This document shows positions 41,446 to 63,312 of a DNA stretch of 64,000 nt, in pieces; within the stretch, counting starts at the first letter, position 1; the number at the start of each line of letters is the position of its first letter. The position numbers and the translations under genes were made by a program. The notes under the pieces are model-generated. The model searched no databases. It saw only the letters and a program-made list of their open reading frames with translations, and was not told the DNA's origin. This DNA is from Lentisphaerota bacterium (GTDB lineage: Bacteria > Verrucomicrobiota > Kiritimatiellia > UBA8416 > VGWI01). The stretch covers positions 71,983 to 135,982 of the forward strand of contig VGWI01000001.1 of assembly GCA_016873655.1 (NCBI GenBank), in the 5' to 3' direction.

Positions 41446-41469
41446 CTGTTCCTCCCGCCCCGGATTCCA

Positions 41470-43294: not shown

Positions 43295-43911
43295 CAGAAG
43301 GCCCTCGGCTTGTACCGGCAGCGTATCTCGAAAAGCCTGTCATCAGGAGATGCATTCTTAGACGTATCGGCTGAGAATGCGGCGACTTCGACAGACTCCA
43401 GCTGTGTCGCGAAGACGGAGAAAGTCCGCAAGTTCTGCTCCAATTCATCGACGGCAAGATCTGAGCCCTTGCCCACGGATCTGCCCCTGATCTGCATCGT
43501 GAAGCTGCGCGCCATGGCCTTGTCTTTCTCGAGGGTCAGAAGAACCTGATCGGTGTTCAATTCGACGAGCTGTATTGCCGGTGGCACGAGGCGTGGCAGT
43601 GCGGCAAGCTGGGTGTGCCAGACGATCTGAGAGCGACGCCAACCGTCGAGTTCTTCCTTGAGTCGCCTGTTGACGTTCAGCTCCGCCGCGATCCTGATGG
43701 CCATTTCCTGCTTCGGCTCCGCCTCCAGCCATTTCCTTTCCAGTTTGTCCACGGCGGCGGTCTTGTTCCACACGTGAACGGCGACGAACGCAAGAGACGC
43801 CCCGATCAGGACGGGTATGGAAAAGGCGATGACCTTCACCACGAATGCCGGCGTGAACAGGCTGGGGTTGCGCTGTTCTGACGGCAGGATAAGGTCAACG
43901 CGCAGATTCAT
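43294..43911 (-). CDS. PilN-like bitopic membrane protein
   Basis: Start refined to the ATG at 43911 (MNLRVDLILPSEQ, resembling the PilN INLLP PilM-binding motif), then one TM and a periplasmic coiled-coil. ATGA overlap with the pilM stop. Confidence 0.5.
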   Translation of the reverse strand: MNLRVDLILPSEQRNPSLFTPAFVVKVIAFSIPVLIGASLAFVAVHVWNKTAAVDKLERKWLEAEPKQEMAIRIAAELNVNRRLKEELDGWRRSQIVWHTQLAALPRLVPPAIQLVELNTDQVLLTLEKDKAMARSFTMQIRGRSVGKGSDLAVDELEQNLRTFSVFATQLESVEVAAFSADTSKNASPDDRLFEIRCRYKPRAF

Positions 43912-44971: not shown

Positions 44972-44988
44972 AAGCACGACGTGTGCCT
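44972..44988 (-). promoter_or_regulatory. candidate sigma-54 promoter upstream of pilM
   Basis: Minus-strand AGGCAC-acgtcg-TGCTT (GG-N10-GC), about 44-60 nt upstream of the pilM ATG. Confidence 0.3.
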
Positions 44989-45339
44989 TTGCTTGGCAAA
45001 GATCATACCCGTTTCTTCGCGGGCGGCAAGAACCTATGTGATCGGGGGTTGTGACCGCGTAAGTTCTGCGGGAAGTCCCCTTCCGACGGGAGAGCGCCTT
45101 CTCACGATTGCGACTGGTCGCAGTCAAGCGAGTCGGGGTTAGGCGCCACGTCAGGGCCGGATGCCCGAATGCCGACGGCAGTCATTCCGTGCTTCATCGC
45201 TTGATTCCCTGTGCGCGGCCGGTCTGGCGAATGGGGCAGGCAAGGCACTTCGTCGCAGTCCGCATATTCTCCCTCAAAAACGTTGCACTGTCGGCGTGAA
45301 GGTTGGTAGCTTCACCGAGACTGCGCGTGGTGCGGCAGA

Positions 45340-46527
45340 TTGCAGGAGACGTGGTTGACCATGGATCATAAGAAGCAACTGTCGAAGACAATGAGGATAG
45401 ACCTCATTCCCGAGACTCCCATGGAGCCGGTGGAGGACAAGAAGACGCGCGTTGTGGTTGCGTCTTCAGGAGCGCGTGAGCCGGTCGACGGAGTTGGTGC
45501 GCACGGTCCTGACGCTTCCATCTATCAGCAGCTCCTTCACAGCCTCTACGACGCCGCAATCATCTGTGATGATCAGGGCGCGATACTGGATGTCAACGTG
45601 CGCGCCCTCGATTTCTTCTTATACACCCATGCAGGATTCTGCAGCCTTCACATATGGGACGTTGTTTCCGGCGCCGACGAGGGGTTGCTCAAGACCATCA
45701 TGGAGAACCTGTCGAACGAGAGGTTCACTCTTATTCAGGCTTACTGTATGCGCAAAGACGGACGGTATTTCCCTTCCGAGATAGCTGTCAGCAAACTCCT
45801 TGTGGCCGAGGGCCTCCGCTTGTGTTTCTACGTTCGCGACATCACCCTGCGGAGACAGGCTGAGGAAATGCTGAGAACGGAGCACAATGCGATCCAGAAT
45901 GCCGACAACGGCATCGCGGTGGCCAACATAAACGCGGAGATAGAGTACGCCAATCCCTCGATGCTGCGGATGTGGAACCTGCCGGACTTGGAAGCGGTAA
46001 TGGGAAAGAATGTGCGCGAGCTTCTGGTGTCCTCGCCGGATATCGACGAGATGCTCGCGGCCGTGACCGTCAAGGGGAAGAGCTGGGCGGGCGAGGTAAG
46101 TGGGCTGCGAAGAGACGGGGCCACGTTTGAAGTTCAGGTAGCGGCCGCGTGCAACAGGAACAGCGAAGGTGAGACAATCGGTATAGTGTTGTCCTTTGCC
46201 GACATAAGCGACCGGAAGCGCGCGGAGAAGGCGGAGATGGAGGCCGAGCGGCACCGGGTAATGCTCGAGAGTCTTGGAGCCGCGTGCCATCATCTGGGGC
46301 AGCCTGCGACCGTGCTGCTGGCCAACCTGGGCATGATGCAGGCCAAAGTGGACAGGTCTGATCCCGTTGTGGGCGAGCTGGTCGAGATGAGTATCGAGGC
46401 CGCCGAAGTGCTGGGAAGCATACTTCACAAACTCAACGAGGTCTCCGAGTACAAAACCACGAGATACCTTGCGGGCGCGGATGATGGCGGGGACGGCAGT
46501 GAGAGCAGGATCCTCGACATAGGTTGA
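45340..46527 (+). CDS. PAS-domain sensor protein with degenerate HisKA-like C-terminus (no ATPase domain)
   Basis: Two PAS folds, one around DAAIICDDQGAILDVN and one around NGIAVANINAEIEYANPSMLRMW. A C-terminal dimerisation-like helix, ESLGAACHHLGQPATVLL, lacks the canonical phosphoacceptor His context. CAGGAGACG RBS. Confidence 0.65.
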   Translation: MQETWLTMDHKKQLSKTMRIDLIPETPMEPVEDKKTRVVVASSGAREPVDGVGAHGPDASIYQQLLHSLYDAAIICDDQGAILDVNVRALDFFLYTHAGFCSLHIWDVVSGADEGLLKTIMENLSNERFTLIQAYCMRKDGRYFPSEIAVSKLLVAEGLRLCFYVRDITLRRQAEEMLRTEHNAIQNADNGIAVANINAEIEYANPSMLRMWNLPDLEAVMGKNVRELLVSSPDIDEMLAAVTVKGKSWAGEVSGLRRDGATFEVQVAAACNRNSEGETIGIVLSFADISDRKRAEKAEMEAERHRVMLESLGAACHHLGQPATVLLANLGMMQAKVDRSDPVVGELVEMSIEAAEVLGSILHKLNEVSEYKTTRYLAGADDGGDGSESRILDIG

Positions 46528-46535
46528 GATCCCGT

Positions 46536-48788
46536 ATGGATGCTCCGTCAAGCTGCGCATGCACGGATGGTGCTCCCAACGCATCGCGCTTCGTCGCGGG
46601 GCTTGCTTCATCGGCATACGTTGCCGCCGCATTCATCGGAGCTTTCCTGCTCTTCGTGGTCCAGCCCATGGTCTCCAAGGCGATTCTTCCCGTGTATGGC
46701 GGCAGCAGCCTGGTCTGGGGCGCCTGCATGGTGTTTTTCCAGGGGGCGCTTCTTGCGGGCTATGCCATCTCCCTGTGGACGCACAGGAAGATGGGCCTGA
46801 GGCGGGCCATGCTTGTGCACCTTTTCATCCTCGCGACGCCATTGCTGTTTCTTCCTCTTGATGTCTCCGTCCATCAGGGCGGGACTGCTCCGCCCGGCGC
46901 TCGGTTGCTGGTTGCGTGGCTCTTCAGGCGCGCCGCCCTTGCGGCAGTGGCCCTCTCGACCGTCAGTCTTGTTTTGCAGCGATGGGTGAGGGCGACCCCG
47001 GGCCGTTTAGCGTCACGGCCCCATCTTCTCTACGCGGCATCGAATACCGGGTCCATATCAGCCTTGTTGCTGTACCCTTTTGTACTGGAACCGTTTCTTG
47101 ACCTCTCGATGCAGGCCTTCGCGTGGTCACTGGCATACGTAGTACTGCTCGTGCTGCTGATTGCTTCCCTGCCCCGCCGCGGGCATGAACGGGACGATGA
47201 TGTCGCGACATCCGGCTTCCCGGTCGAGATCCGGCCTTCGGCATACATCCGGTGGTTTCTGCTCTCCTTCGCATCCTGCGCTCTTCTTCTGGCGGCCACC
47301 AACAGGCTGTCGTTTGATCTGGCCTCGATCCCATTTCTCTGGGTGTTGCCGCTCTCTGTGTATCTCGGATGTTTCGTCGTATCATTCGGGAGCCGGCCGC
47401 CGCGACAGGAATGCACCCGGCGCTTCTTCGGCTGGGCATTGACGTGCGGGGGGCTCCTCTGCCTTGTCTCGTCGTTGAGGATGTCGTTGCCGGCTCCCGC
47501 GGCGGTTTTGCTTCACCTTGCCGTTCTTGGCGGGGTATGTCTGGGATGCACCGAGAGTCTGGTCAGGTCCAGGCCAGGCCATGCGCAGGGGATGACCTCG
47601 TTCTATCTTGCAGTTGCCGCGGGCGGGTTCGCCGGAAGTTTCCTGGTGGCATGGGTCGCGCCGCTCTGTTTCAAATGGCACGCGGAATACCCTGTTGCAC
47701 TTGCCTTGGCAGCGTGGGCGGTGTCGGACGCAGGATCGAGGAGGGCATGGGTGCGGGCCGGCTTGATTCCGGCGCTCGTGGCTTTCGGTTCGGTCACTAT
47801 CGTTCCACTGACGGTCAGGCAGTTTCTTCCCGGGGCTGCTTCAGGGCTCGTGATGGTGCCTGCCGCAGGCTTGCCGCTGGCGCTTGCCTTGAGACGGGGG
47901 TCTTCTTCTGCGTCGTCGGCCGCTGCGGTCCTGGCTGCGGTTGCCCTCGGGTTGGGGTTTACGGAATCGGCCGCCACGGGAGGCTCTGAGATCCTTCGCC
48001 TGAGGAACTACTACGGCACGTACAGGGTATTTGAGGATTCCGGGCTGCGGTATCTCCAGCACGGGAACACGCAGCACGGGCGGCAGCGGGTTGCAGGGGA
48101 TGGGGCTGGAGTCCCATTGTCCTACTACCATCCGTCCACACCCGCGGGCGACTTCCTGTCTTCACGGATCTTGCCCGGGAAGCGCGCGGCAATGGTCGGG
48201 CTTGGGACGGGTGCTCTCGCGGCATACTCGGGGAGCGGCTCTGTTCTGGACATCTACGAACTGGATCCGGCCAACGAGCCGGTGGCAAGAAAGTACTTCT
48301 CGTATCTCGGGGATGCTGAGGAGCGCGGTGCGCTTGTCCGGCTGCACGTGTGTGACGGGCGGCTGGGGCTGGCTTCAGCCGCGAAGGCTTCTTATGACGT
48401 GATCATAGTGGATGCTTTCAGCAGTGGATCTGTGCCGGTGCATCTGCTTACAAAGGAAGCATTTGAAACGTACCGCGGCGCCATGAACACGGACGGGATA
48501 TGCCTGATGCATCTATCCAACCGCGCTCTGAACATGGTTCCGTTCGTCGCCTCAACCGCAGCAGAAGCCGGATTGACGGCGTTGACGGCATCGAACGCTG
48601 GCAACGTTCATCCGGACGCGGACCTTACCGAGTGGGTTGCGCTGATCAATCATTCCTCTGTCGATCTCAGGCGGGCGTTAGAGATGCGCGGCTGGGTTGA
48701 TGTCCCCGGGCCCTTGCCAAGGCCGTGGACCGACAATTATTCAAATCTGGCCGCGGCATGGCTTGCCGGCTTCCGTCAGGGGAAGTAG
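46536..48788 (+). CDS. fused polytopic membrane domain / spermidine-synthase-like (PABS) protein
   Basis: An N-terminal polytopic membrane region of about 500 aa. The C-terminal aminopropyltransferase fold has GLGTGALAAYSG, the SAM-binding Gly loop, and the VIIVDAFSS acidic motif. ATG at 46536, 9 nt after the PAS-protein stop. Confidence 0.7.
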   Translation: MDAPSSCACTDGAPNASRFVAGLASSAYVAAAFIGAFLLFVVQPMVSKAILPVYGGSSLVWGACMVFFQGALLAGYAISLWTHRKMGLRRAMLVHLFILATPLLFLPLDVSVHQGGTAPPGARLLVAWLFRRAALAAVALSTVSLVLQRWVRATPGRLASRPHLLYAASNTGSISALLLYPFVLEPFLDLSMQAFAWSLAYVVLLVLLIASLPRRGHERDDDVATSGFPVEIRPSAYIRWFLLSFASCALLLAATNRLSFDLASIPFLWVLPLSVYLGCFVVSFGSRPPRQECTRRFFGWALTCGGLLCLVSSLRMSLPAPAAVLLHLAVLGGVCLGCTESLVRSRPGHAQGMTSFYLAVAAGGFAGSFLVAWVAPLCFKWHAEYPVALALAAWAVSDAGSRRAWVRAGLIPALVAFGSVTIVPLTVRQFLPGAASGLVMVPAAGLPLALALRRGSSSASSAAAVLAAVALGLGFTESAATGGSEILRLRNYYGTYRVFEDSGLRYLQHGNTQHGRQRVAGDGAGVPLSYYHPSTPAGDFLSSRILPGKRAAMVGLGTGALAAYSGSGSVLDIYELDPANEPVARKYFSYLGDAEERGALVRLHVCDGRLGLASAAKASYDVIIVDAFSSGSVPVHLLTKEAFETYRGAMNTDGICLMHLSNRALNMVPFVASTAAEAGLTALTASNAGNVHPDADLTEWVALINHSSVDLRRALEMRGWVDVPGPLPRPWTDNYSNLAAAWLAGFRQGK

Positions 48789-50335
48789 GCCGGTGTGCGT
48801 GAACCCTCACTGGTGACAGTCGAGCCGAGCTTCTCCAGCAAGTCTGTGTGCAGGGACTTTCTCACGAATATGCACGCGATGGGGTCGTTGTAGACCAGCG
48901 CCCAGTCGTTTCTGGCAAGCATGGTCCGTGTGGCGGGGTTTCCGACATGCAACAGTGCTATGTCTGTCGGGTACCCGTCAATGGCTCTGGAAGCGTGCTC
49001 ACCTGCGTAGATGAAGTCGAAATAGACCTTTGATGTCTCCCGGCTGTATGCACAGTCGAAGCGCCCGTCCAGAAAGACGCGGCAATCCGGATAGAGGTGC
49101 CAGATTGCCATCTCCGCCCAGTCGAAGAAGATGACTGCGTTGCCTCGGATGTTGTGTTCTTTCATGAATCGGATGGCGTCGACGGCATATTTGTCGCGTG
49201 GCACTTCCATCTCAGCAGGATGGGTCTTGTTGAACAAGAAGACGGCGCCCATGAGGAGGATTGCGGATGCTGTCAGAACCGAGATCTTGACGCTCGTGCT
49301 CACCCCGGCGGCGAGACTGGCAAGCGGACGCGATACACGGGCGTCCAACTCGGCTGGCACCACAAACGCCGCGACGATAGCGAAGATGGGGATGTTACGC
49401 CGCATGAGCACCGCGGCGGCGAGCGATGCCGCCAGCAAGCATCGCCATTCCGGTCCGGTGCGCTTTGGCCTGACCAGTGCAGGCAGGCTCACGGCGCCCA
49501 GCAGCAGAAAGTCCGCGTGGTCTTGGAAGTCGCGGAGGGGATTGAACATGGCCCACTCGCTCAGGAATGGCCTGTACCGGCCGGCAGCGTCCGAGATGAA
49601 GTCCCACAGCATAAGTCCGTATGGGTTGAGACTGCTGGCCGCGATGAGCAGACATGCCGCGGCGATGGCCGGAAGAGCGCGGCGGGTGGATGCCGTGTGC
49701 GTGCGGGTGAAGAAAGCGGCGGAGCCGAAGACGAGAAGCGTGATGATCCCGATGAAGAAAGCGCCGTGCAGGTTGGCCCACAGCACACCGCCGAGCAGAC
49801 AGGCCGGGTAGAATGCCGGTTTTCTGAGCCAGTCGCGGCGCAGTGAGACAAGGAGTATGGCCAGGAGCAGATATGTGAACAGATGCGGTCGCGTCGAAAA
49901 ACCGTAACCTATCGTCGAAACGAAGAGCAGCGTGAACAGGAAGCGCAGAGGGCCGGACACATTACTCCTGGCGGAGTCCGCAGTCGCAATTCCAAGGACG
50001 AGGAACCCGAGCAGGATCTTGACGAGCAGGAGGCCCGCATTCCCGCAACACCTGAAGACCGCGTTATAGACATACTGCGCAAGCCACTCGTGGTTGACCC
50101 ACAGCCGGTCTGGTTCCGTGAAGGAGTATGTGTTCGCCCTGAGATAGCCATCCTGCCAAGGCAATGAGGTGACAAATCCGACGTTGCCCCACAGGTCAAC
50201 GTCTGCTTCGTTGTTCGAGAACTGGAACAGGCCGAAGCAAGCTACGCAGGCCGCGGCACAGACCGCTAACAGGCGGTTCCTCGAGACTGGCCCGTGCCGT
50301 GGGGAGTCCGATGAAAGGTGTATGTCGGTCAGCAT
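48776..50335 (-). CDS. hypothetical polytopic membrane protein, possible GT-C-type glycosyltransferase
   Basis: About 12 TM helices with an acidic first loop (NNEADVDLW...TEPDRLWVNHEW) and a C-terminal soluble domain. Divergent from the TMTC-like gene. The functional call is inference. Confidence 0.4.
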   Translation of the reverse strand: MLTDIHLSSDSPRHGPVSRNRLLAVCAAACVACFGLFQFSNNEADVDLWGNVGFVTSLPWQDGYLRANTYSFTEPDRLWVNHEWLAQYVYNAVFRCCGNAGLLLVKILLGFLVLGIATADSARSNVSGPLRFLFTLLFVSTIGYGFSTRPHLFTYLLLAILLVSLRRDWLRKPAFYPACLLGGVLWANLHGAFFIGIITLLVFGSAAFFTRTHTASTRRALPAIAAACLLIAASSLNPYGLMLWDFISDAAGRYRPFLSEWAMFNPLRDFQDHADFLLLGAVSLPALVRPKRTGPEWRCLLAASLAAAVLMRRNIPIFAIVAAFVVPAELDARVSRPLASLAAGVSTSVKISVLTASAILLMGAVFLFNKTHPAEMEVPRDKYAVDAIRFMKEHNIRGNAVIFFDWAEMAIWHLYPDCRVFLDGRFDCAYSRETSKVYFDFIYAGEHASRAIDGYPTDIALLHVGNPATRTMLARNDWALVYNDPIACIFVRKSLHTDLLEKLGSTVTSEGSRTPAYFP

Positions 50336-50414
50336 ATCTTGAAAGAAGATCCGTCCCTTGTGGTATCGTGCCTTGCGAGAGGGTGGTTTGTCGAGTTCTG
50401 GGGGGGATTACTTG

Positions 50415-52487
50415 ATGTCAACCCGAGGAATCCAACGCATCAACTGGCGTGTTCTGGCGCCGTTTGCCTTGGCCGCTGTTTGTGTTCTTTCATACTCAAA
50501 CAGCTTCGGCGCCGAGTTCATACTCGACGACAGCCGGGTCATTCTGACGAATCCCTTCATAGCGAGGCTCTGGCCGCTCAACACCTCGCCTCGCGGCGTG
50601 GCGGATCTGACTTTCCGGCTCAACCACTTCTTCGGAGGCCTCAACCCGTCAGGCTACCATGCTGTCAATGTGGCAATACATACGGCAGCAGCCCTTGTTC
50701 TCTTCGGGTTGCTGTGCAGGGCGGCGGCATTCCGACGCGTGAGAGAATCGTTGGGAATGGATCAGGTTTCGATGGGTTTCCTTGCGGCGGCGCTGTGGGC
50801 CGCGCATCCGTTGCAGACGGAAAGCGTGACCTACGTGTGTCAACGCTACGAATCTCTTGCGGGTCTCTTCACCTTCTTCTGTCTTTACGCGTTTGTCCGG
50901 GGTATGGGCGGCGGCCGGGCGGCCAGGTTATGGTTTGATCTCTCGATCGTCGTCTGCGCGCTGGGGATGGGTGTGAAGGAAACGATGGCTGTCGTTCCGC
51001 CGTTGTTGCTGGTGCTCGACGCAGGGCTGCTTGCCGAATGTCCGGCCGAGGCATGGCGGAAGAGAAAATGGGTGCACGTGGCGTTGTTCATGACGTGGGC
51101 TTTTTTCGGGCTGTTCCAGTTCTCCTACACGATCCACAACACTGCCCACGGACTCAGTGCCCCGCGTGTGGAGGTCGGCATCCCGCCTCTCTGGTACCTC
51201 GTGACGCAGTTCGGTGTGATCGTGCACTATCTTCGTCTGGCTCTGCTTCCGATAAACCTGTGTCTGGACTATGGCTGGCCCATCGCGCAGAAATGGCATG
51301 AGACGCTGCCTCAGGCGCTGGTGCTGGCATTCCTGGGCGGCGCTTCCGTCCTGGCGGTTGTCAAGCGGCATCCGCTGGGCTTTCTCGGGGCGGGCTTCTT
51401 TCTGACGCTTGCTCCGACATCCAGCGTTATTCCGATTTCCGACCCGGCGTTCGAGCACCGCATGTATGTTCCTCTTGCTTTTGTGCTGACAGCGTTGGTC
51501 GGGGGATCCGGTGTCGTCGTAAGCGCTGCGTGTCGAAAACTCGGGCGTTCTCTGTGCCGGCCCGCAGCCGTGGTCGCAGCCGTCTTGGTAGTCGTTCTCT
51601 CGGTCGCGACATGGCAGCGGAATGCTGACTACGCGTCCTCGGAGAGGATGTGGGAAGATGTTTCGAAGAAGTGTCCCGCAAACTACAGGGCCAGGCTGGG
51701 ATTGGGGCAGGCCCTGATGGATCGGGGCGCCTATGAAGATGCGTGCAAGGTCCTTTCGGGGCTGAAGCTGGATCTGGACACGGCGATCCTCAGCGGCGGA
51801 CAGACGAAACTTGTCGCTGCACGGAATCCGGGGGCGGTCTACTACCCTGTTCTTGTCCAACTCGGCATGGCGGAGTCGAACCGCGGGCGGTTCGGGGAAG
51901 CAGAGCCCCTCCTGCGCGGTGCGATCGCATGGAACCCCAAAGCTGCCGATGCGTATTGTAGTCTTGCTGCTGTCAGAATAACGCTGGGTGAGGAGGTCGA
52001 AGCTGAGTCTCTCTTGCGGCAGGCGCTGGCCGTGGACGCCGAATCGGTTGGGGCAAACGCGCTCATGGCGGGACTGATGGCAAGATCGGGCAGGCACGTT
52101 GTTGCGAAACAGTATTACCGGGCCGCGCTCAGCCGTGCGCCCGACCGCGCGGTGCTGTGTACGGACTATGCCTGGTTGCTTGCAACCAGTCCGCTTGTGA
52201 ATGTCAGGGATGCGGGTGAAGCCGAAGTATTCGCCCGGAAGGCGGTGGAGCTGACAGGAGGGACCAGTCACCGGGCGTTTGATGTGCTGGGCGCGGCGCT
52301 GGCGGAGGCGGGCCGTTTTGATGAGGCCGCCGAGATGGCCGGGAAGGCCATCTCAATACTCGACGCATCTTCTTCGGGTTTGGGTTCCCTGGAGACCCGG
52401 GCGGAGATCGTCTCAAGGATCGGTTTGTACCGCAGCGGCCAATCCTTCCGCGCTGTGTCCGCGGCGGAGAACGAATCCGGGAATTGA
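50415..52487 (+). CDS. TMTC/DUF1736-like membrane glycosyltransferase with C-terminal TPR array (putative protein O-glycosyltransferase, GT-C)
   Basis: The N-terminal multi-TM domain contains the DUF1736 hallmark GYHAVNVAIHTAAAL and an acidic first loop. The C-terminal roughly 300 aa are TPR repeats. ATG at 50415 after GGGGGG. Confidence 0.7.
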   Translation: MSTRGIQRINWRVLAPFALAAVCVLSYSNSFGAEFILDDSRVILTNPFIARLWPLNTSPRGVADLTFRLNHFFGGLNPSGYHAVNVAIHTAAALVLFGLLCRAAAFRRVRESLGMDQVSMGFLAAALWAAHPLQTESVTYVCQRYESLAGLFTFFCLYAFVRGMGGGRAARLWFDLSIVVCALGMGVKETMAVVPPLLLVLDAGLLAECPAEAWRKRKWVHVALFMTWAFFGLFQFSYTIHNTAHGLSAPRVEVGIPPLWYLVTQFGVIVHYLRLALLPINLCLDYGWPIAQKWHETLPQALVLAFLGGASVLAVVKRHPLGFLGAGFFLTLAPTSSVIPISDPAFEHRMYVPLAFVLTALVGGSGVVVSAACRKLGRSLCRPAAVVAAVLVVVLSVATWQRNADYASSERMWEDVSKKCPANYRARLGLGQALMDRGAYEDACKVLSGLKLDLDTAILSGGQTKLVAARNPGAVYYPVLVQLGMAESNRGRFGEAEPLLRGAIAWNPKAADAYCSLAAVRITLGEEVEAESLLRQALAVDAESVGANALMAGLMARSGRHVVAKQYYRAALSRAPDRAVLCTDYAWLLATSPLVNVRDAGEAEVFARKAVELTGGTSHRAFDVLGAALAEAGRFDEAAEMAGKAISILDASSSGLGSLETRAEIVSRIGLYRSGQSFRAVSAAENESGN

Positions 52488-52521
52488 TCGGGAGCGACCC
52501 GTGCGCCGTCTGTGCCGGGCG

Positions 52522-52893
52522 CTATGCGTCTATTGAAGCTTTGTTCCCGTTCCTCCCAGCTTGTCCTTCCCCGTTTCTCAACGCCAGTTCCTGAGACAGG
52601 CGCCGGATCTGGCGGCGATGCTGCGATATGACAAGAGAGAATTGCAGGCACATTAACAGCAGGACGAAGAAGCCCATCAGGAAAAGCGTTGTGGTCGGAG
52701 TTACCGCTCCGATCAGGTTGGACAACCTGACGAGCAGGTCATACCTGACAACAACGAAAAGCGCGCCGACACTGATGCCCAGCCATATCCAGCAGTATGC
52801 AATGTCAAGTTTGCCTTTCTGAACCAGCCTTACCGTGAGAAACAGGAGCAGCAGACTCAGGGCTATCGAAGCCATGAACTGTCTCAGAGACAT
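52522..52893 (-). CDS. DUF2304-like small membrane protein
   Basis: About 123 aa with 3-4 TM helices. The start at 52893 follows GGGAGG and overlaps the stop of the upstream GT2 gene, which is the usual GT2–DUF2304 pairing. Confidence 0.55.
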   Translation of the reverse strand: MSLRQFMASIALSLLLLFLTVRLVQKGKLDIAYCWIWLGISVGALFVVVRYDLLVRLSNLIGAVTPTTTLFLMGFFVLLLMCLQFSLVISQHRRQIRRLSQELALRNGEGQAGRNGNKASIDA

Positions 52894-53651
52894 GGGGTGC
52901 TTCCTCCCTTCTCGCCTGCTTCGTTTGCGGTACGTTCGCGCCTCCATGCGCGCCAGACCAGGAAATTAAGGGCGACTATGAACATTGAAAGCGTGACCTT
53001 GGCGGAGTAGTAGAGAGGGCGAAGGCCGGCGTGCATGGACTGACCGCCGGATCTATCGGCCATCCTTACCGGCACCTCAACGATCCGGAGACCTGCAAGC
53101 CTGCACATCAGGATCACATCCGAGTCGGGGTAGTCGCAGGGAAATGCTCCGCTGGTGAACAGGTGCAGAGCTCTCCGGGTGATGGCCTGAAAGCCGGATG
53201 TGGGGTCGGAGAGTCTCAGGCCGGTAGTGAGCCTGAGAACTGACGCGAACAAAGCGTGTCCGGCGCGGCGCAAGGGGGTTGTGGCGGTAGCGCCGTCGGG
53301 TCGGTAACGGGATCCTATTACGATGTCGGCGGAACCATTGAGGACCGGGGCCATGATCAGTCGGACTTGGTCAGGCAGGTGTTGGCCGTCGCCGTCCATC
53401 TGCACGGCGAAGTCGTACCCCGACGCAAGGGCGTGCATATAGCCGGTCTCGAGAGCTGCTCCGTATCCAAGGTTGCAGCCGTGTCGAAGGACGAGTGCAC
53501 CGGCCGAGCGCGCTTCGCATGCGGAGGAATCGGGCGAGGCGTCGTCGATCACGACGACGTCCAAATCGGGGAAGGCGGCGCGGACGGATCGGACCACATT
53601 GCCGATCCTTCCGCGTTCCCTGTAGCAAGGTATCAGTACAACGGCTCGCAT
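52884..53651 (-). CDS. glycosyltransferase family 2, polyprenyl-phosphate hexose (mannose/glucose) synthase-like
   Basis: VVLIPCYRE...VVVIDDASPD (DXD-type), the VQMDGDGQH catalytic motif, and a C-terminal membrane anchor. These match the Dpm1/Ppm1/GtrB family. Confidence 0.8.
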   Translation of the reverse strand: MRAVVLIPCYRERGRIGNVVRSVRAAFPDLDVVVIDDASPDSSACEARSAGALVLRHGCNLGYGAALETGYMHALASGYDFAVQMDGDGQHLPDQVRLIMAPVLNGSADIVIGSRYRPDGATATTPLRRAGHALFASVLRLTTGLRLSDPTSGFQAITRRALHLFTSGAFPCDYPDSDVILMCRLAGLRIVEVPVRMADRSGGQSMHAGLRPLYYSAKVTLSMFIVALNFLVWRAWRRERTANEAGEKGGSTPCL

Positions 53652-53772
53652 ATCGGGCTTGCACTCCCCTGCCGCAAATCAAGCAGGCGAGCGCAGGCGG
53701 ATATTAGGCTGACGATCGGGAAGTGTCAGCAGAGATCTTGGACAACGGCAGGAACAGGAAGCGAAGCCCAGA

Positions 53773-53816
53773 CAGAAAAACGAAGCCCCGCTGCAAGAGC
53801 GGGGCTTCGTTTTTCG
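53773..53816. terminator. bidirectional intrinsic terminator downstream of the pilin gene
   Basis: AGAAAAAC-GAAGCCCCGC-tgcaaga-GCGGGGCTTC-GTTTTTCG: a perfect 10-bp GC-rich stem flanked by an A-run on one side and a T-run on the other. Sits 23 nt after the pilin stop. Confidence 0.75.
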
Positions 53817-53838
53817 AGATTCAGTCAGAAGACTCGAA

Positions 53839-54177
53839 TTACAGAGCGTGAGCGTTCGGGCTTGTGACCGAGCAGCTCGGATCCGTGCCCATCGCCTGGT
53901 AGGTGTACGTGCCGCTGGCCGGGCAGACCGGAGTCGTGCCGCCCTTGATGTACGAATCAACAGCGGTCGTCACAACAGCCGCGGTGCCCGCGATGTTGTT
54001 CGCCATGGCCCACTGCTCCTTGGCGCTGTCAATCTGACGCAGGTTGTTGATGCAGGCGTTCTGCCTGGATGTGTCACGGGCCTTCACGAATGAAGGAATC
54101 GCGATCGCGGCCAGAAGGCCGATGATCGCCACAACAATCATGATCTCCACCAACGTGAAACCACTCTTCTTACTCAT
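53839..54177 (-). CDS. type IV pilin (major pilin candidate) with C-terminal disulfide-bonded D-region
   Basis: MSKKSGFTLVEIMIVVAIIGLLAAIAIP is the prepilin leader plus conserved hydrophobic helix, with Glu at +5. Two C-terminal Cys, CPASGTYTYQAMGTDPSC, are 17 residues apart. AGGAGG RBS. Followed by a strong terminator and preceded by a sigma-54-type promoter. Confidence 0.8.
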   Translation of the reverse strand: MSKKSGFTLVEIMIVVAIIGLLAAIAIPSFVKARDTSRQNACINNLRQIDSAKEQWAMANNIAGTAAVVTTAVDSYIKGGTTPVCPASGTYTYQAMGTDPSCSVTSPNAHAL

Positions 54178-54248
54178 CGCACTTCCTCCTTTTGCTCTGG
54201 GCTGCGACTTTGCCCCAACACTCGAACCCTAAACAACGGGTGACTATC

Positions 54249-54265
54249 AAGCAGGGCTTGTGCCA
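54249..54265 (-). promoter_or_regulatory. sigma-54 (RpoN) promoter of the pilin gene
   Basis: Minus-strand TTGGCAC-aagcc-CTGCTT with GG and GC spaced by 10 nt, about 72 nt upstream of the pilin ATG. A sigma-54 activator gene is adjacent. Upstream direct repeats GCAAGAT lie at 54297-54303 and 54310-54316. Confidence 0.5.
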
Positions 54266-54439
54266 AGTCTCCATTCTCAGGTGTTCGCAGGCATGAGCAA
54301 GATGTTGTATGCAAGATAGATAAATCGGTGGGTGCATGATGAACAGGGTCCGCGTCTGCACAGGCGGTTCGCGGAGATGATAAGCTCAATTCGCAGAAAC
54401 GAGTAACTAGAATGTCAACTATGCGAATTGCTGAGAAGG

Positions 54440-55825
54440 CTATGCTTCCGAGTCGGGGAGCTTTCTGTAGAGTGTCGCGAGGCTTATCTTGAGAGCTTTG
54501 GCGGCTTCTTCCTTGTTGCCTCGAGTAAGAGAGAGCACTTGCTGCAGGTACTCTTTCTCCTTCTGGCGCAGGAAGGCTCTCAGAGATTTTCCTCTCTCTG
54601 CGTCCAGGGATCCTGGTTGGTTCTGTCCTGCCGTTGCCGGAGAGGGGGCTGACTTGGCTGACTCCACGACTTTTGCGGGAAGGTCACCGGGTTTGATTCT
54701 GCCGTCTGTGGCGAAGGCCAGCGCATGCTTTATCGCGTTCTCGAGCTCTCGCACATTGCCGGGCCAGTTGTAGATCTCCATCACGTGACTGGCTTCAGGA
54801 TCAAGTGTCGGAAGATCCTTGCCTTCAGGGGTTTCGGCTCGAATGACGTGGTAGATTAGAGGCAGTATGTCATCCTGTCTCTCGCGAAGGGGTGCTATCT
54901 GTATCGGGATCACGCTCAGGCGATAGTAAAGATCCTCGCGGAACTTGCCTTCCTGGATAAGGCTCTCGAGTTTGGTGTTTGTTGCGGCAAGGACCCGTGC
55001 ATCCACGGGGATGTTCTCGTTGCTGCCGACGCGCCGGACTTCCTTCTCCTGCAATACGCGGAGGAGTTTGCCCTGAATTGAGAGCGGCATTGACCCTATC
55101 TCGTCAAGGAAGATGGTGCCGCCTGAGACTGCCTCGAAAAGGCCCTGCTTATCGGAAGCGGCTCCGGTGAAGGCGCCTTTCACGTGTCCGAACATCTCGG
55201 ACTCGAGAAGTGGCTCAGGGAGGGCCGCGCAGTTCACGGCAAGGAACTTCTTTTCTTTGCGCGGGCTCTGCGTGTGTATCGCTTTTGCGACAAGCTCTTT
55301 GCCTGTGCCGCTCTCCCCATAGATGAGAATCGTGGTATCGGTCGGCGCCACCTTGCGGATCATCTCGCACACGTTCTTCATGGACGGGCTCTCGGCGATG
55401 ATGTTCTCCATGCGATACTTTGTTGTGAGCATCGCCTTGAGATCGGCGTTTTCGGTGAGTGCGGTACGGTAGGCGAGTGCTCTCTGGACGGTGATCAGGA
55501 GTTCATCGACCTTGAAAGGTTTCGTGACGTAATCAAACGCCCCGAGTTTCAGTGCCTTGATGGCGGTTTCGACCGAACCGTAGGCAGTGAGCATTATGAC
55601 GGAAGTTGAGGGCGAGTCGTGCCTCGCAAACTGAAGGATGTCCATGCCCCCGACTGGCTTCATGTAGATGTCGCAGAGCAAGAGATCGAAATCCTGCTCC
55701 TTGATCAGGGCCTGAGCTTTCTCGCCATTGTTCTCCGGCACGACTTCGTAACCTTCAGCACGCAGTATCGTGCTGAGCACGCTCAAGATGCTCGGTTCAT
55801 CGTCGACAACCAATATCCTGGGCAC
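54440..55825 (-). CDS. sigma-54-dependent response regulator (NtrC/PilR family: receiver + AAA+ + Fis-type HTH)
   Basis: Receiver domain (ILVVDDE...LLLCDIYMKP). AAA+ sigma-54 interaction domain with Walker A GESGTGKE, the GAFTGA motif and ESEMFGH. A C-terminal HTH. Likely GTG start at 55825 after GGAAGGAG. The ORF track's ORF starts at 55867. Confidence 0.85.
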   Translation of the reverse strand: MPRILVVDDEPSILSVLSTILRAEGYEVVPENNGEKAQALIKEQDFDLLLCDIYMKPVGGMDILQFARHDSPSTSVIMLTAYGSVETAIKALKLGAFDYVTKPFKVDELLITVQRALAYRTALTENADLKAMLTTKYRMENIIAESPSMKNVCEMIRKVAPTDTTILIYGESGTGKELVAKAIHTQSPRKEKKFLAVNCAALPEPLLESEMFGHVKGAFTGAASDKQGLFEAVSGGTIFLDEIGSMPLSIQGKLLRVLQEKEVRRVGSNENIPVDARVLAATNTKLESLIQEGKFREDLYYRLSVIPIQIAPLRERQDDILPLIYHVIRAETPEGKDLPTLDPEASHVMEIYNWPGNVRELENAIKHALAFATDGRIKPGDLPAKVVESAKSAPSPATAGQNQPGSLDAERGKSLRAFLRQKEKEYLQQVLSLTRGNKEEAAKALKISLATLYRKLPDSEA

Positions 55826-55965
55826 GGCAAGCGCTCCTTCCGTCGACCCTACCGCAGTGGCGGGCACGAGAGACGGTGACAGATGCAGAGTGTAGCGGGC
55901 GTATGATGCACGGTGGGGCTCCCAAGCGCAAGGGTATTTTTCTCATTTTTGGGAGAAGTGCGGTG

Positions 55966-56032
55966 CCCCCTTGGCGAGACTGAACGCGCCTCGCCGGCTC
56001 TGCCGGAGGCGCGTTCAGTCTCGCCAAGGGGG
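55966..56032. repeat. long perfect inverted repeat (27-bp arms, 13-nt loop)
   Basis: CCCCCTTGGCGAGACTGAACGCGCCTC / gccggctctgccg / GAGGCGCGTTCAGTCTCGCCAAGGGGG. Lies between the stop of the GspG-like gene and the start of the sigma-54 activator gene. There is no U-tract on the transcribed strand. Confidence 0.6.
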
Positions 56033-56043
56033 GGGCTGGCGGG

Positions 56044-56550
56044 CTATTTCAGGATGACGTAGATGTTATCGCTGTCATAGATGTTTCGGCCCCGTCCGTT
56101 GGGGCCGAACGAGCCCACGACTACTCTCATCCGATTGCCCACAAGGTAATCAGGGTCGAAGAAGTACGGGTTGCCCCACGGATCATTCTCGATTTCCGGT
56201 ACGTACGGACCCCTCCAGTTGCTGTATGCCGCAGTTGAGGAGAGGATGCCAGCATCGCTTGCCCTGAGGTCCCAGATTTCACGGTCTTGAGAAACGTTCC
56301 TGATCAGGGCTCCGGGCCAGCGCCCGGTGTCCCACGCAAGCTGTTTGATTCCGGCAGCCAGTATTTCCACTTCTGCCATCGCCTTCCGCTTCTTGGTCTC
56401 GGTGTTTGTCTTGTTCAGTGCCGGAATGGCTATCGCCAGCAGTATCATGACCACGCTGAGCGTGATCATGATCTCCATAAGGGTGAAGCCTGGCCCTGAT
56501 TGCCCTCGAGCGAAGGCACGACGCTCTGCTTCTTCAGTCGGAATGTTCAT
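56044..56550 (-). CDS. GspG-like pseudopilin (prepilin-type N-terminus)
   Basis: GFTLMEIMITLSVVMILLAIAIP N-terminus and the GspG hallmark NDPWGNPYFFD. Start refined to the ATG at 56550 (MNIPTEEAERR...). The ORF track's ORF extends to 56850. Confidence 0.75.
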   Translation of the reverse strand: MNIPTEEAERRAFARGQSGPGFTLMEIMITLSVVMILLAIAIPALNKTNTETKKRKAMAEVEILAAGIKQLAWDTGRWPGALIRNVSQDREIWDLRASDAGILSSTAAYSNWRGPYVPEIENDPWGNPYFFDPDYLVGNRMRVVVGSFGPNGRGRNIYDSDNIYVILK

Positions 56551-56600
56551 TATCGGACTCCTATTGTCCATCCCATGCGCAGAGGATATACTACATTGGA

Positions 56601-56617
56601 AGCAGGCTCGGTGCCAG
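56601..56617 (-). promoter_or_regulatory. sigma-54 promoter candidate for the GspG-like pseudopilin gene
   Basis: Minus-strand CTGGCAC-cgagc-CTGCTT, the same unusual CTGCT -12 element as the pilin promoter, about 50 nt upstream of the ATG at 56550. Confidence 0.45.
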
Positions 56618-56772
56618 AAGGCGGGTGGATCGGAAATAGGATCGCGACGCCGAATGGCATACTTCGTGAGCGAAACAAGTCGCAAGTGTTTGAACGTCTT
56701 CGGGTAGCGCGTTGTCATTATCGAGAACTGGATGGCGGGCAAGTCTCTGCTAGGTAGATGGTTGTGCAATAT

Positions 56773-56788
56773 GGCCCGAGAGTTGCTA
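56773..56788 (+). promoter_or_regulatory. sigma-54 promoter candidate for the divergent minor-pseudopilin operon
   Basis: TGGCCC-gagag-TTGCT on the plus strand, about 50 nt upstream of the ATG at 56839. Confidence 0.35.
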
Positions 56789-56838
56789 ATTGTTGTTGCA
56801 CATCTTCTCGGGTATTCAGGCAAGGAGCTGATGGCAGA

Positions 56839-57291
56839 ATGAGAAGGCACATCTCAACAAGAAGGTTGGTGTTTTGGCGCTGTGCCGGCAAGTGCGGTTT
56901 CACGATGATTGAGGCGCTTGTTGCCGTGACGATCCTTGGGTTTTTTGTCGTGGGCGTATGTGCTCTGGTTGTTACGACGCGGGAAACGATGGATACAGCG
57001 CGTGCTCACTACACGGCTTCCAACATAGCCAAGAACCGCATCGAAAGGCTTCATGCGCTGGTATTCGATGACCTGGCGCAGTACGCGGAGGCGGGGGTTG
57101 TCGTGAACGACTCCGGCATGCCGTCATCGTCCGGTAACTTCATGCGTACGACGGTGGTTTCCAACGTGAACGACAGGCTGTTTGACATCAGGTGCGTTGT
57201 TACCATGCGCAACCGGGTGTCGCTTGCTTTCGAGGGGGGGGGCGAGTCGGTGCAGACTCTTATTGCGCGTTACGAGGCCCCGGAACGATGA
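56839..57291 (+). CDS. minor pseudopilin (GspH/GspI-like; prepilin-type N-terminus)
   Basis: Basic leader followed by GFTMIEALVAVTILGFFVV. 150 aa. ATG at 56839. Stop overlaps the next gene's ATG (ATGA). Confidence 0.65.
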   Translation: MRRHISTRRLVFWRCAGKCGFTMIEALVAVTILGFFVVGVCALVVTTRETMDTARAHYTASNIAKNRIERLHALVFDDLAQYAEAGVVVNDSGMPSSSGNFMRTTVVSNVNDRLFDIRCVVTMRNRVSLAFEGGGESVQTLIARYEAPER

Positions 57292-60619: not shown

Positions 60620-63016
60620 CTACATAGGACGTGAGGGCGCAGGCGTTGGGTCGTTGGCAGGTTGCGCCGTTGGGTCGGGCTCGGGCGCCATTTCGGGGAG
60701 GGCGCGGATGCGTTTCATCTCGTTGTTCACCGCCACGGCAGCGTCCATCAGCCCGCGTTTTGTGAAATCTTTCTGCAGGTCTGCAAGCTGTTTGAGGTAC
60801 GCGTTAGCGATCTGGACGACGCGTCTCTTCCTCTCTTCAACTCTGCGGGTGGCCTGGGCCCGGAACTCAACGCGAAGCTGGTCCAATTGCGGGTGCGAGG
60901 GATAGAGCATGCCGGTCTCGCCGGCGGCAGCGGGGTCGGGGATGAACCGGTCCGCGCGGAAGCGCTCCATTTCCTCGGTGAACGCCGCCCATCCGTCAAA
61001 GTCGCCCTTTTTCTGCATGTCCTGCTGGCGTTTGGCCAGGTCGGCCAGATACGCCTCCGGCCATTCCTGTTCCGCGCGGCGGAACTCCGAGACCACCGAA
61101 TCTGCGGCCCGGGTGAAATCGGCCCTGGCCTGTGCGAGCAGTTCCGTGTGTCCAGCCTCCGGTGGCAGGGGCGGCGGAGCCTCCGCCGGGTTGCCGGCGG
61201 GGGCATCCGGCCGTGAGTACATGTCCGCCGCTTCCCACAGCGCCGCGTAAGAGTCGAATGCCGGGCGCAGTGGCGCCGGTTCGCGGAGAGCGATGGCGAA
61301 CCCGTAGACTGCCTTGAAGAGGCGCGGTGTGACGGGGGAAAAGATGCGGAACGCCGGCGGCGCGGAGAGGAGGTAGAGCGCCAGGACTGCGAAGGCCGAA
61401 ACTGCGGACACCCGCACTGTTCGGCGCAGGCGGATTGAGGCCGCGATTCTGCGGACGCGCGGGTCGGCCGGCGCGGCGTCGGTCAAGTCCTCGACTATGC
61501 GTTCGGCGAAGGCCCAGTCCCTGCGCGCCGCCGCCTCGCGCGCGCGGTCGAGGTCGCGTTCCACCCGCAGCGAGGCCAGTTGCTTCTTCTGTCCGGAGAA
61601 CAGCGAATCGTTCGAGAGCGTTTCGTACTCGTTGATATGGCGTTCGGCCTGCTCGTAGTTGCGGACGGCGATCTCGTTCGGGATCAAGTCTTTCAGCTTC
61701 ATCCGTCGCGCCAGCGCGCGGCGGGCGTCTTCGCCGTAGTGATGAATCCGCTCGACCATGCGGCGTCCGTTTTCGCCGCAGGGCTTGAACCCGGATATCT
61801 GGCCGCACTGCTGGATGATGAGTTCGTAGGACTTGTCATCCCAGTACTTGCGGATGCGATCTTCCAGCGAGGTGGCGATTTCGTATTCGCGTGAGTCGGC
61901 GCCGCATACGCCGCAGAACTGGATGCCGATCCTGATTTCCGATCCGCATTCCGAGCACACCTCGCCGCCATCCCATCCGCATTTGCCGCAGTAGCGGATC
62001 ATCACAGGGTTGACCGTGTCGCACCACTTGCAGCGCCAGGTGCTTTTCACGGTCGGCACTTCGATCGTCGAAGGTGCTTTCACCAGGTTCAGGGCGGCGG
62101 CGAAGTCCCGCACCGATAGCCAGCGGCGTTCGCGGTCCGGCTCCAGAGCCTTGGCGATCGGCATCCGGAGCCCTTCGGGGATGTCGCTCTCGCGGAAGTA
62201 GCGGGGGTTCTGGCCGGTTATGCTGAAGAACAGTAGGGCGCCGAGCCCGTAGACATCGGCGCGCTCGTCGGTGACCGTTGCATCAGCTTCCTGCTCCGGG
62301 GCGCCGTACCCGAGCGAGAGCATTCTTTCACCCGGCAGGGTCAGGCGCTGGGTGTCCGGGGTCATCTTCAGGGCGAGGCCGAAGTCAACGATACGCGGTT
62401 CGTAGTTGCCGTTAAGAAGCACGTTCGAAGGCTTGAGATCGCGGTGGATCACGCGGCAGGAATGGGCGTAGGAGACCGCGTCGCAGATCTTGAGCATGAG
62501 GTCCAGGGCATCGGAGACCGACAGCGGGCCATCGCGGTGTACGCGGTCGGCCAGTGAAAACGGCATCGGCGGCACCTTGTTGGGCGATGCCTCGGTTGGG
62601 CCGGCTACATACTCCATCACTATGTAGGGGCCTTCCTCATCCTCGCCCAGCCCGTAGATGTGCACGATACCGCTGTGGTTGAGGGCGGCGACGGCGCGGG
62701 CTTCCCGGAGGAACCGGCTCTTGAGAGAGGCGTTTGCGATGCTGGCGGCGTTCAGTCTCTTGATCGCTACGTGCCGGCCGAGTTTCTGGTCACGAGCGAG
62801 GTAGACAACGCCCATCCCGCCGTCGCCGATCTTTTCGAGGACCGCGTAGTGGGTCTTTATCGAGCCGGCCGGGGCCGCTGAGGTAGTTGCCCAGTCCCGG
62901 TTTCGCTGAGTTGTGCCGACGTTGGGCGCAACGAGCCTGACTGTGCGGGGTTCCCGTTCCGCGGGGGCATCCCCGTCCAGCGTGCCGTCATCATTGTCTC
63001 GTTGTCTCTCTGGCAT
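60620..63016 (-). CDS. transmembrane Ser/Thr protein kinase with two zinc ribbons and extracytoplasmic C-terminal domain
   Basis: Hanks kinase subdomains GDGGMGVVY, VAIKRL, HRDLKPSNVLL, DFG and APE. Two ribbons, CKWC...CGKC and CSEC...CGVC. One TM helix, VSAVSAFAVLALYLLSAPPAF. ATG at 63016; the ORF track's ORF starts at a TTG at 63052. Confidence 0.8.
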   Translation of the reverse strand: MPERQRDNDDGTLDGDAPAEREPRTVRLVAPNVGTTQRNRDWATTSAAPAGSIKTHYAVLEKIGDGGMGVVYLARDQKLGRHVAIKRLNAASIANASLKSRFLREARAVAALNHSGIVHIYGLGEDEEGPYIVMEYVAGPTEASPNKVPPMPFSLADRVHRDGPLSVSDALDLMLKICDAVSYAHSCRVIHRDLKPSNVLLNGNYEPRIVDFGLALKMTPDTQRLTLPGERMLSLGYGAPEQEADATVTDERADVYGLGALLFFSITGQNPRYFRESDIPEGLRMPIAKALEPDRERRWLSVRDFAAALNLVKAPSTIEVPTVKSTWRCKWCDTVNPVMIRYCGKCGWDGGEVCSECGSEIRIGIQFCGVCGADSREYEIATSLEDRIRKYWDDKSYELIIQQCGQISGFKPCGENGRRMVERIHHYGEDARRALARRMKLKDLIPNEIAVRNYEQAERHINEYETLSNDSLFSGQKKQLASLRVERDLDRAREAAARRDWAFAERIVEDLTDAAPADPRVRRIAASIRLRRTVRVSAVSAFAVLALYLLSAPPAFRIFSPVTPRLFKAVYGFAIALREPAPLRPAFDSYAALWEAADMYSRPDAPAGNPAEAPPPLPPEAGHTELLAQARADFTRAADSVVSEFRRAEQEWPEAYLADLAKRQQDMQKKGDFDGWAAFTEEMERFRADRFIPDPAAAGETGMLYPSHPQLDQLRVEFRAQATRRVEERKRRVVQIANAYLKQLADLQKDFTKRGLMDAAVAVNNEMKRIRALPEMAPEPDPTAQPANDPTPAPSRPM

Positions 63017-63312
63017 TGACTGTTCCGGCGATCGGGCTGCAGTTCCTTCCAAGGCGTTATGGAGACCGGTCTTATACCACGACCGGATGGGACTGGCATT
63101 TGAAAAGTGGCGGAGGTTCGGGCGCAGCTGCGGTTTATCGCATCTCCATCTGTCCGTCGGCCTTGCGTCGGCGTCGGCAGACTCATGTTGGTCTCATTCC
63201 GGCGGGCTCCTGACGTTCATTCTGTTCAGCGGCATGCGCAAGGCGTTGATGGATAGATGGTTGAATGCGATGGGCAACGGTTGTGCCGTACCGGTGGCGG
63301 GGGGACAAGCCG

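Follow-up and report, generated by a model that had tools for sequence, protein, structure and literature searches.

Control of type IV pilin genes by sigma-54 and PilR-type activators is textbook knowledge for Proteobacteria, Myxococcus and Geobacter. In the PilS-PilR systems of Pseudomonas aeruginosa, Myxococcus xanthus and Xanthomonas, a two-component bacterial enhancer-binding protein (bEBP) activates the sigma-54 promoter of the pilin gene from upstream sites; in P. aeruginosa, PilR binds tandem direct repeats. In Geobacter, pilA is the next gene after pilR and is under PilR control, and its RpoN promoter was mapped by 5'-RACE (rapid amplification of cDNA ends) (PMC2725144); more broadly, there is a general link between sigma-54 and pili (PMC3162934; PMC7170775, PMC6211767). 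A full-text search of the literature found no description of sigma-54/PilR-type pilin control in Kiritimatiellia or the wider Planctomycetes-Verrucomicrobia-Chlamydiae (PVC) group. Here we analyze a stretch of 64,000 nucleotides from a Lentisphaerota bacterium assigned to Kiritimatiellia (contig VGWI01000001.1, positions 71,983 to 135,982; hereafter, the window, with all coordinates given in its own numbering), in which a type IV pilin gene with a putative sigma-54 promoter is located next to a gene encoding an NtrC-family activator.

By our analysis, this layout corresponds to the Geobacter pilR-pilA arrangement, placed in a little-studied phylum, and the mechanism would be the standard one of bEBPs and sigma-54. 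Shared with Geobacter sulfurreducens are the order of the genes, an NtrC-family activator followed by the pilin, and the −24/−12 promoter in the spacer between them. The two cases differ in lineage (Desulfuromonadota for Geobacter vs. Kiritimatiellia here) and in the −12 element, where C precedes TGC here whereas the Geobacter consensus is TTGGCACGGTTTTTGCT. Furthermore, pilS does not adjoin the activator gene in this window, and the candidate activator box TTYKCA-N4-TGMRAA was derived from the present material, independently of the Geobacter PilR site. We consider it highly probable that the pilin gene is read from a sigma-54 promoter and activated by the product of the adjacent gene from upstream palindromes, and that this activator also acts on the gene for a GspG-like pseudopilin, on a pilM-like/secretin operon and on its own gene.

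The pilin gene and its putative sigma-54 promoter

The pilin gene (53839–54177, minus strand, ATG at 54177) is an open reading frame encoding a 112-aa, major-pilin-like protein that matches the Pfam family PF07963 (N_methyl, 6.5e-09) and TIGR02532. The features of a class III signal peptide that were looked for, namely a short basic leader, G−1, F+1, E+5 and a hydrophobic N-terminal helix, are all present: the leader MSKKSG is followed by a mature part that begins with F1 and carries E5 (MSKKSG/FTLVEIM; in longer form MSKKSG/FTLVEIMIVVAIIGLLAAIAIP, also MSKKSG/FTLVEIMIVVAIIG). Cys residues are found at positions 42, 85 and 102. Among NCBIfam models, those of Myxococcus PilA and GspG match best, over their N-terminal parts, with every score under the cut-off, and the nearest solved structures are those of type IV pilins, i.e. 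Geobacter PilA-N, Myxococcus PilA and the PilA of entry 9laa, the alignment with the latter spanning residues 4–106; the Geobacter PilA-N 'geopilin' is among the closest solved relatives of the N-terminal half. An identical pilin is present on eight public contigs (JGI lake metagenome samples, Logan assemblies), for which gene callers predict the same 112-aa product; contig Ga0194113_10000300 of JGI sample 3300020074 overlaps the window. The ATG is preceded by the ribosome-binding site AGGAGG, and the gene is followed by an intrinsic terminator (53775–53815, minus strand) with an 18-bp stem and the tract UUUUUCU, which was detected both by folding (−39.1 kcal/mol, z −8.05) and by a terminator scan. 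The pilin gene is a single-gene transcription unit that ends at this strong terminator. Its own promoter, the strong ribosome-binding site, the strong terminator and the PilA major pilins as closest solved relatives, along with the existence of separate GspG-like and minor-pilin genes, are suggestive, and suggestive only, of a major filament-forming subunit as opposed to a pseudopilin of a type II secretion system or a minor pilin. The C-terminal half of the protein is rich in Thr and Ser.

The putative promoter, TTGGCACAAGCCCTGCTT (54249–54266, minus strand), was recovered by a pattern search, a position matrix and an alignment of related loci. Its GG (54264–54263) and GC (54252–54251) are in GG-N10-GC spacing, and its final T (54249) lies 72 nt from the ATG; on both counts, the re-read sequence agrees with the original prediction, a note written earlier by a model from the sequence of this stretch. 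If C 54251 is taken as −12, the start site is predicted at ~54239, compared with 54238 in that earlier reading. The motif occupies non-coding DNA directly downstream of the activator gene and is oriented like the pilin coding strand. Across both strands of the 64 kb, TGGCAC-N5-CTGCT has two matches (0.08 expected), and the broader TGGCAC-N5-YTGCW retrieves the same two (0.16 expected in the 128 kb of both strands); both are on the coding strand, 51–72 nt upstream of prepilin-type start codons. The second match, the sole other copy in the window, is found at the GspG-like gene, where the recurrence of the motif had already been pointed out. When a position matrix was built from related promoters, the pilin site came out as the top match of the window (17.3 bits), and scores of 16.8 bits or more also turned up in 5 of 30 shuffled windows; because shuffled windows score similarly, the matrix score alone is not decisive, and the weight of the case is in the location of the matches and their conservation.

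For the comparative analysis, the activator protein was scanned against one genome per species, which yielded 25 loci of other species with 45–71% identity (labeled L0xx where they have to be told apart), the closest ones in Kiritimatiellia, Lentisphaerae and Verrucomicrobiota metagenome genomes. Between the activator stop codon and the next gene, TGG[CT]A[CT]-N5-NTGCT was present in 14 of the 25 loci. The gene after the motif encodes a pilin in 12 of these 14, the contig ending just past the motif in the other two; these pilins share 40–94% identity with the query in the region that aligns, and the TGG-to-ATG distance in the orthologues is 71–119 nt. By gene order, a pilin gene directly follows the activator in 13 related loci and lies ~2 kb away in L026, and in relatives the activator-pilin pair adjoins genes for PilB-like (T2SSE + MshEN) and PilC-like proteins. 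When the 143 nt preceding the pilin ATG were aligned by MAFFT for 13 species, with no anchor on the motif, the mean column identity was 39%, and the only invariant upstream columns were TGG.A, TGCT and one scattered T. This alignment reads as a clean phylogenetic footprint of a −24/−12 promoter, and, given the comparative data, a chance origin of the motif appears very unlikely. Pilin paralogues in L023 and L026 also carry the motif, as do the pilM-like operons of L025, L026, L028 and L034. In L023 (7554–8905), three tandem pilin paralogues are located 3' of the activator, two of them with a promoter of their own, TGGCACGCCGT[CA]TGCTTTA.

On the minus strand of 53600–57000, no sigma-70-like promoter was found upstream of either the pilin or the GspG-like gene in a scan with the E. 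coli consensus only, which PVC-group promoters may not fit. Conceivably, the GG-N10-GC matches could be fortuitous or non-functional, in which case the pilin gene would depend on an unrecognized promoter of the housekeeping-sigma type or on read-through of activator transcripts. This explanation is favored by the possible deviation of PVC-group sigma-70 promoters from the consensus employed, by the shuffled windows, some of which attain 17.3 bits, by the lack of a terminator between the activator and pilin genes, such that some read-through is possible, and by the many E. coli sigma-54 sites that are bound without driving transcription (PMC4591121). Nevertheless, we regard it as very improbable because TGG.A and TGCT are invariant in 13 species despite the 39% identity of the surrounding DNA, and because all core-pattern matches in the window precede pilus genes on the correct strand. 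Also counting against it, GAFTGA activators are not known to have a role apart from sigma-54. The placement of the motif, its conservation, its recurrence at the GspG-like gene, the RpoN encoded in the pilus cluster of a relative and the lack of a sigma-70-like promoter support the core of the original prediction, a pilin gene with a sigma-54 promoter beside an NtrC-family activator.

Compared with the consensus mrNrYTGGCACG-N4-TTGCWNNw of Barrios et al. (1999), in the form quoted in PMC2725144, the pilin promoter agrees at 14 of the 17 specified positions by our count, sharing GG, GC, the 10-nt spacing, TGGCAC, TGC and the following W, whereas it has C for the first T of TTGC and A for the G after TGGCAC. 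The description of the CTGCT −12 element as non-canonical was overstated because it is only this first T that differs. In Table 1 of a chromatin immunoprecipitation sequencing study of E. coli sigma-54 (PMC4591121), T precedes TGC in 27 of the first 39 intergenic sites, C in seven, A in four and G in one, and the C-type sites include astC, glmY, norV and patA, which are marked there as confirmed in EcoCyc. With C at 7 of these 39 sites, CTGC is an ordinary minority variant. The same table also contains the −24 variants TGGCCC and AGGGCAC, which resemble two weaker sites of the present window. Of 16 related pilin promoters, nine have C before TGC, four A, two T and one G, so that the further claim of a genuine lineage trait stands in the sense that C is typical here. 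The Klebsiella nifH promoter has CCCTGCA at −12.

The activator and its candidate binding sites

The activator gene (54440–55825, minus strand) starts with GTG, preceded by AAGGAG, and encodes a 461-aa bEBP of the NtrC family. The Pfam domains are Response_reg (PF00072, 2.6e-28), Sigma54_activat (PF00158, 2.5e-73), AAA_lid_14 (PF25601) and HTH_8 (PF02954, 1.2e-10), i.e. a receiver, an AAA+ domain and a Fis-type helix-turn-helix, the architecture of the response-regulator class of bEBPs. The motif scan found both ESEMFGH and GAFTGA (within ESEMFGHVKGAFTGA), and the translation shows the Walker motifs GESGTGKE and FLDEIG as well as the receiver Asp in LLLCDIYM; Pfam and the motif scan thus agree with the earlier description of a complete NtrC-family activator with GAFTGA, ESEMFGH and a Fis-type helix-turn-helix. 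The best 25 of 118 NCBIfam matches comprise AtoC, NtrC, the PEP-CTERM response regulator, ZraR, LuxO and others, all below the cut-offs, with AtoC and NtrC on top, neither of which reaches its equivalog cut-off, and no PilR model among these 25. Aquifex NtrC1/NtrC4 are the nearest solved structures, and there was no PilR structure among the PDB matches. The designation PilR-type is supported as a functional analogy and for the gene order, the activator standing beside the putative major pilin gene as in the PilS-PilR systems, but not for a pilS gene, none of which adjoins the activator in the window.

It may be argued that the sigma-54 promoters are real and yet are worked by another bEBP, encoded elsewhere, the position of the adjacent activator gene being incidental. 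The families of bEBPs are large, the activator belongs to no named NCBIfam equivalog, and in ~9 of the 25 related loci the activator is followed by neither a pilin gene nor the motif, so that the pairing is common, not universal. Nonetheless, we consider this quite unlikely, given that the order of activator and promoter is kept in 14 species, with the pilin next in 12, that the activator gene is the only bEBP gene detected in the window by the motif scan, and that the palindrome found in the activator-to-promoter intervals recurs in front of the activator gene itself, in 10 species or more, as expected of an autoregulated cognate site.

This palindrome emerged from k-mer counts over the orthologous spacers, which brought out TGAGAA, TGCGAA and TGCAAA, arranged as 16-bp palindromes TTYKCA-N4-TGMRAA that are mostly paired 21–23 bp apart and located 80–205 bp upstream of the predicted start. 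The palindromic form differs from the direct repeats of P. aeruginosa PilR. With up to two mismatches allowed, the palindrome occurs at 10.7 per kb in activator-to-promoter intervals vs. 0.29 per kb elsewhere in the loci, a difference that is partly circular, the pattern having been derived from the same kind of intervals. Because the pattern came from the counted intervals, an independent matrix test was run, for which the training set of the box matrix was confined to 14 sites of other species, and hits in the window were counted at ≥8 bits. Six of the 18 hits fell within the 1.2% of the window that is upstream of the three promoters (binomial p = 4e-8).

The best-scoring box, TTGTCATTATCGAGAA (56712–56727, 17.2 bits), is located in the divergent intergenic region, with its center at ~−130 from the start site of the GspG-like gene, and the second-best, TTCTCACGATTGCGAC (45099–45114, 17.0 bits), is centered at ~−145 from the start of the pilM-like operon, ~120 bp upstream of that promoter. 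Upstream of the activator gene is the third-ranking box, TTCTCATTTTTGGGAG (55940–55955, 12.6 bits). The pilin spacer contributed four more hits, three of which, at 54368, 54390 and 54412, are spaced 22 bp apart. Together, the boxes 54368–83, 54390–405 and 54412–27 and the overlapping 54422–37 constitute a candidate enhancer, or upstream activating sequence, at 54368–54437, with box centers near −136, −158 and −180; boxes of the same type, in pairs 21–23 bp apart, occupy the equivalent place in orthologous loci. Two additional weak, overlapping palindrome-like boxes (54274–54299, centers near −42 and −52, the stronger one at 54284–54299 with 10.3 bits) are of uncertain function, given their unusual proximity to the promoter. 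At least 10 related loci have an equivalent of the third-ranking box upstream of the activator gene, ~40–110 bp from its start, none of these boxes being training sites; this recurrence suggests that the box is a candidate autoregulatory site.

The original prediction had proposed a different enhancer candidate, or a site for integration host factor (IHF), in the form of a tandem GCAAGAT repeat. Its copies are at 54297–54303 and 54311–54317, the second one having been misplaced by one position (54310–54316), and are located at ~−58 to −78 relative to the predicted start. The repeat falls in the stretch that separates the promoter from the distal boxes, the usual place of IHF sites and bends, and each copy overlaps a TGMRAA-like half-site (TGAGCA and TGCAAG). 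However, a 7-bp direct repeat within 30 bp is present in 16% of the shuffles of the 174-bp spacer, the GCAAGAT repeat is missing from every orthologous spacer, including those of the closest loci, L009 and L011, and a search of both strands from the enhancer candidate to the promoter found nothing that fits the IHF consensus WATCAR-N4-TTR. The direct repeat (54297–54317) was therefore rejected as an enhancer and is probably not a specific site, and there seems to be very little chance that it serves the activator or IHF. The likely enhancer appears to be the set of TTYKCA-N4-TGMRAA palindromes rather than the GCAAGAT repeat.

As in PilS-PilR systems, a gene for a PilS-like protein, with six transmembrane segments and HisKA, precedes the activator in two relatives, L020 and L031. 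In contrast to those systems, the PilS-like proteins of the relatives are devoid of HATPase_c, and no such gene was found in the window itself by tblastn. Proteins with HisKA, the dimerization and histidine phosphotransfer (DHp) domain, and without HATPase_c are encoded immediately upstream of the activator in L020 (4394–5689), L031 (3124–4383) and L014 (4841–5773); they stop ~25–35 residues past HisKA, and those of L020 and L031 have the PilS-type six transmembrane segments. Because the next gene begins ~100–230 nt later, the catalytic domain is truly missing. Such a protein could be a phosphatase-only or phosphotransfer partner.

Several observations weigh against the preferred reading, in which the adjacent activator drives the pilin promoter from the palindromes. 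Apart from the scores of the shuffled windows, the possible read-through, the loci without the pairing and the partial circularity of the palindrome density, all mentioned above, rpoN was not found in the 64-kb window by a search for the RpoN box in the six-frame translation, no cognate kinase is encoded beside the activator, and a tblastn search of the window with the PilS-like proteins of the relatives retrieved nothing. Furthermore, the boxes in the pilin spacer of the window are individually weak (8–11 bits), and the support rests on sequence, the organism being an uncultured freshwater metagenome lineage. From the GAFTGA activator and from L028, which encodes RpoN (Sigma54_CBD + Sigma54_DBD) next to its pilus secretin operon, we infer that rpoN is present in this genome.

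Under the preferred reading, the sigma-54 holoenzyme would bind the −24 GG and −12 GC at 54249–54266 as a closed complex, which would remain inactive until the adjacent activator is phosphorylated on its receiver domain. The phosphorylated activator would oligomerize on the 16-bp palindromes 135–190 bp upstream of the start site, and its ATP hydrolysis, transmitted via the GAFTGA loop, would open the pilin promoter. The same activator probably drives the GspG-like gene and the pilM-like/secretin operon, possibly also the divergent minor-pilin operon, and probably binds upstream of its own gene as well.

The comparative analysis provides a promoter logo and a candidate box for the activator, and it predicts a regulon of three or four operons; these results would help to annotate pilus regulation in PVC metagenome genomes but change no concept. 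A more far-reaching scenario, which we put forward tentatively and with more doubt than confidence, is that an autoregulated activator with the TTYKCA-N4-TGMRAA box is the master switch of type IV filaments in Kiritimatiellia, with a phosphatase-only PilS-like partner and a −12 element shifted to C. If this is true, the regulon would encompass the pilin, the pseudopilins, the minor pilins and the pilMNOPQ-like operon. The PilS-like partner, consisting of six transmembrane segments and DHp, with the ATP-binding domain lost, would in several relatives be a pilin-sensing feedback device, not a kinase, and the sigma-54 promoters of the lineage would prefer C over T just upstream of the −12 TGC.

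Other sigma-54-like promoters and pilus genes in the window

The GspG-like gene (56044–56550, minus strand, ATG at 56550) encodes a 168-aa pseudopilin with PF08334 (T2SSG) and N_methyl matches; the match to TIGR01710 (gspG, 2.6e-14) is below the cut-off, the ribosome-binding site is TAGGAG, and the same 168-aa product is called on a public contig. The second putative sigma-54 promoter, TGGCACCGAGCCTGCTT (56600–56616, minus strand; core TGGCACCGAGCCTGCT, 56601–56616), which was found by the pattern search, lies 51 nt upstream of this ATG, with a predicted start at ~56590 and, consequently, a 5' untranslated region (5' UTR) of ~40 nt. The relaxed pattern GGCAC-N6-TGCT has three matches in the window, the third one being GGCACACGTCGTGCT (also AAGGCACACGTCGTGCTT) at 44973–44987 on the minus strand, a count that carries less weight because the pattern was picked after this site had been seen. 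This sigma-54-like promoter is located 55 nt upstream of the pilM-like/GspM-like/secretin operon, which extends from 44918 down to ~38021.

A further possible sigma-54-like promoter, TGGCCCGAGAGTTGCT (56772–56787, plus strand), was retrieved by the matrix with 12.7 bits and is tentative because this score is within the range of shuffled windows. It faces the divergent minor-pilin operon (ATG at 56839, genes to 60537), in whose genes N_methyl motifs and a weak PilV-like match were detected, and the box at 56712–56727 is common to this site and to the promoter of the GspG-like gene. A solitary gene for a classical GspG pseudopilin (14114–14506, plus strand) precedes an ABC transporter operon, and no convincing GG-N10-GC site was found upstream of it.

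The machinery for pilin assembly is represented in the window by the pilM-like/GspM-like/secretin operon (38021–44918) and by a peptidase of family A24. The gene for this prepilin peptidase (19781–20665, minus strand; PF06750 + PF01478), which is needed for pilin and pseudopilin processing, is located ~5 kb beyond the classical GspG gene. Searches of the window by tblastn with the proteins of relatives found no homologues of PilB or PilC, and no PilT was seen in the window.

Untranslated regions, hairpins and neighboring genes

The predicted 5' UTR of the pilin transcript (54178–54239, minus strand) is 62 nt long, includes AGGAGG and was delineated from the sequence and the MAFFT alignment. 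The block GGGCAAAGTCGCAGCCC within it is kept in the closest relatives. At 54195–54215 on the minus strand (alignment columns ~155–190), the window shares the form GGGCA-N3-5-TCGCAGCCC of this block with L009, L010 and L011, whereas L025, L028 and L034 have CCGGCA-N3-TGCCGATTGCG instead; the block is a small stem-loop with a TTCGCA-like half-site. Folding of the entire pilin 5' UTR of the window showed no significance (z −1.26).

It is the GspG-like gene, not pilS, that adjoins the activator upstream in the window, and between the two genes there is a 29-bp, near-perfect hairpin without a U tract (55965–56036; −68.6 kcal/mol, z −9.8), which is likely to be a transcript boundary. A scan of 53600–57000 against Rfam gave only sub-threshold, spurious matches to this long hairpin (microRNA precursors) and to the pilin terminator.

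Downstream of the pilin gene, at 48776–53651, are genes encoding a family-2 glycosyltransferase (52884–53651), a DUF2304 protein (52522–52893), a 709-aa protein with C-terminal TPR repeats (50358–52487) and a 519-aa protein (48776–50335). This group may be a pilin glycosylation module. Homologues of the 709-aa and 519-aa proteins flank the pilin in L009, L011, L015 and L031. Beside the minor-pilin operon is a gene (60620–63052, minus strand) for a double-zinc-ribbon Ser/Thr protein kinase, which has a homologue near the activator of L024, and a gene for a PAS-only protein (45340–46527) is divergent from the pilM-like operon; either the kinase or the PAS-only protein could feed signals into the pilus system.

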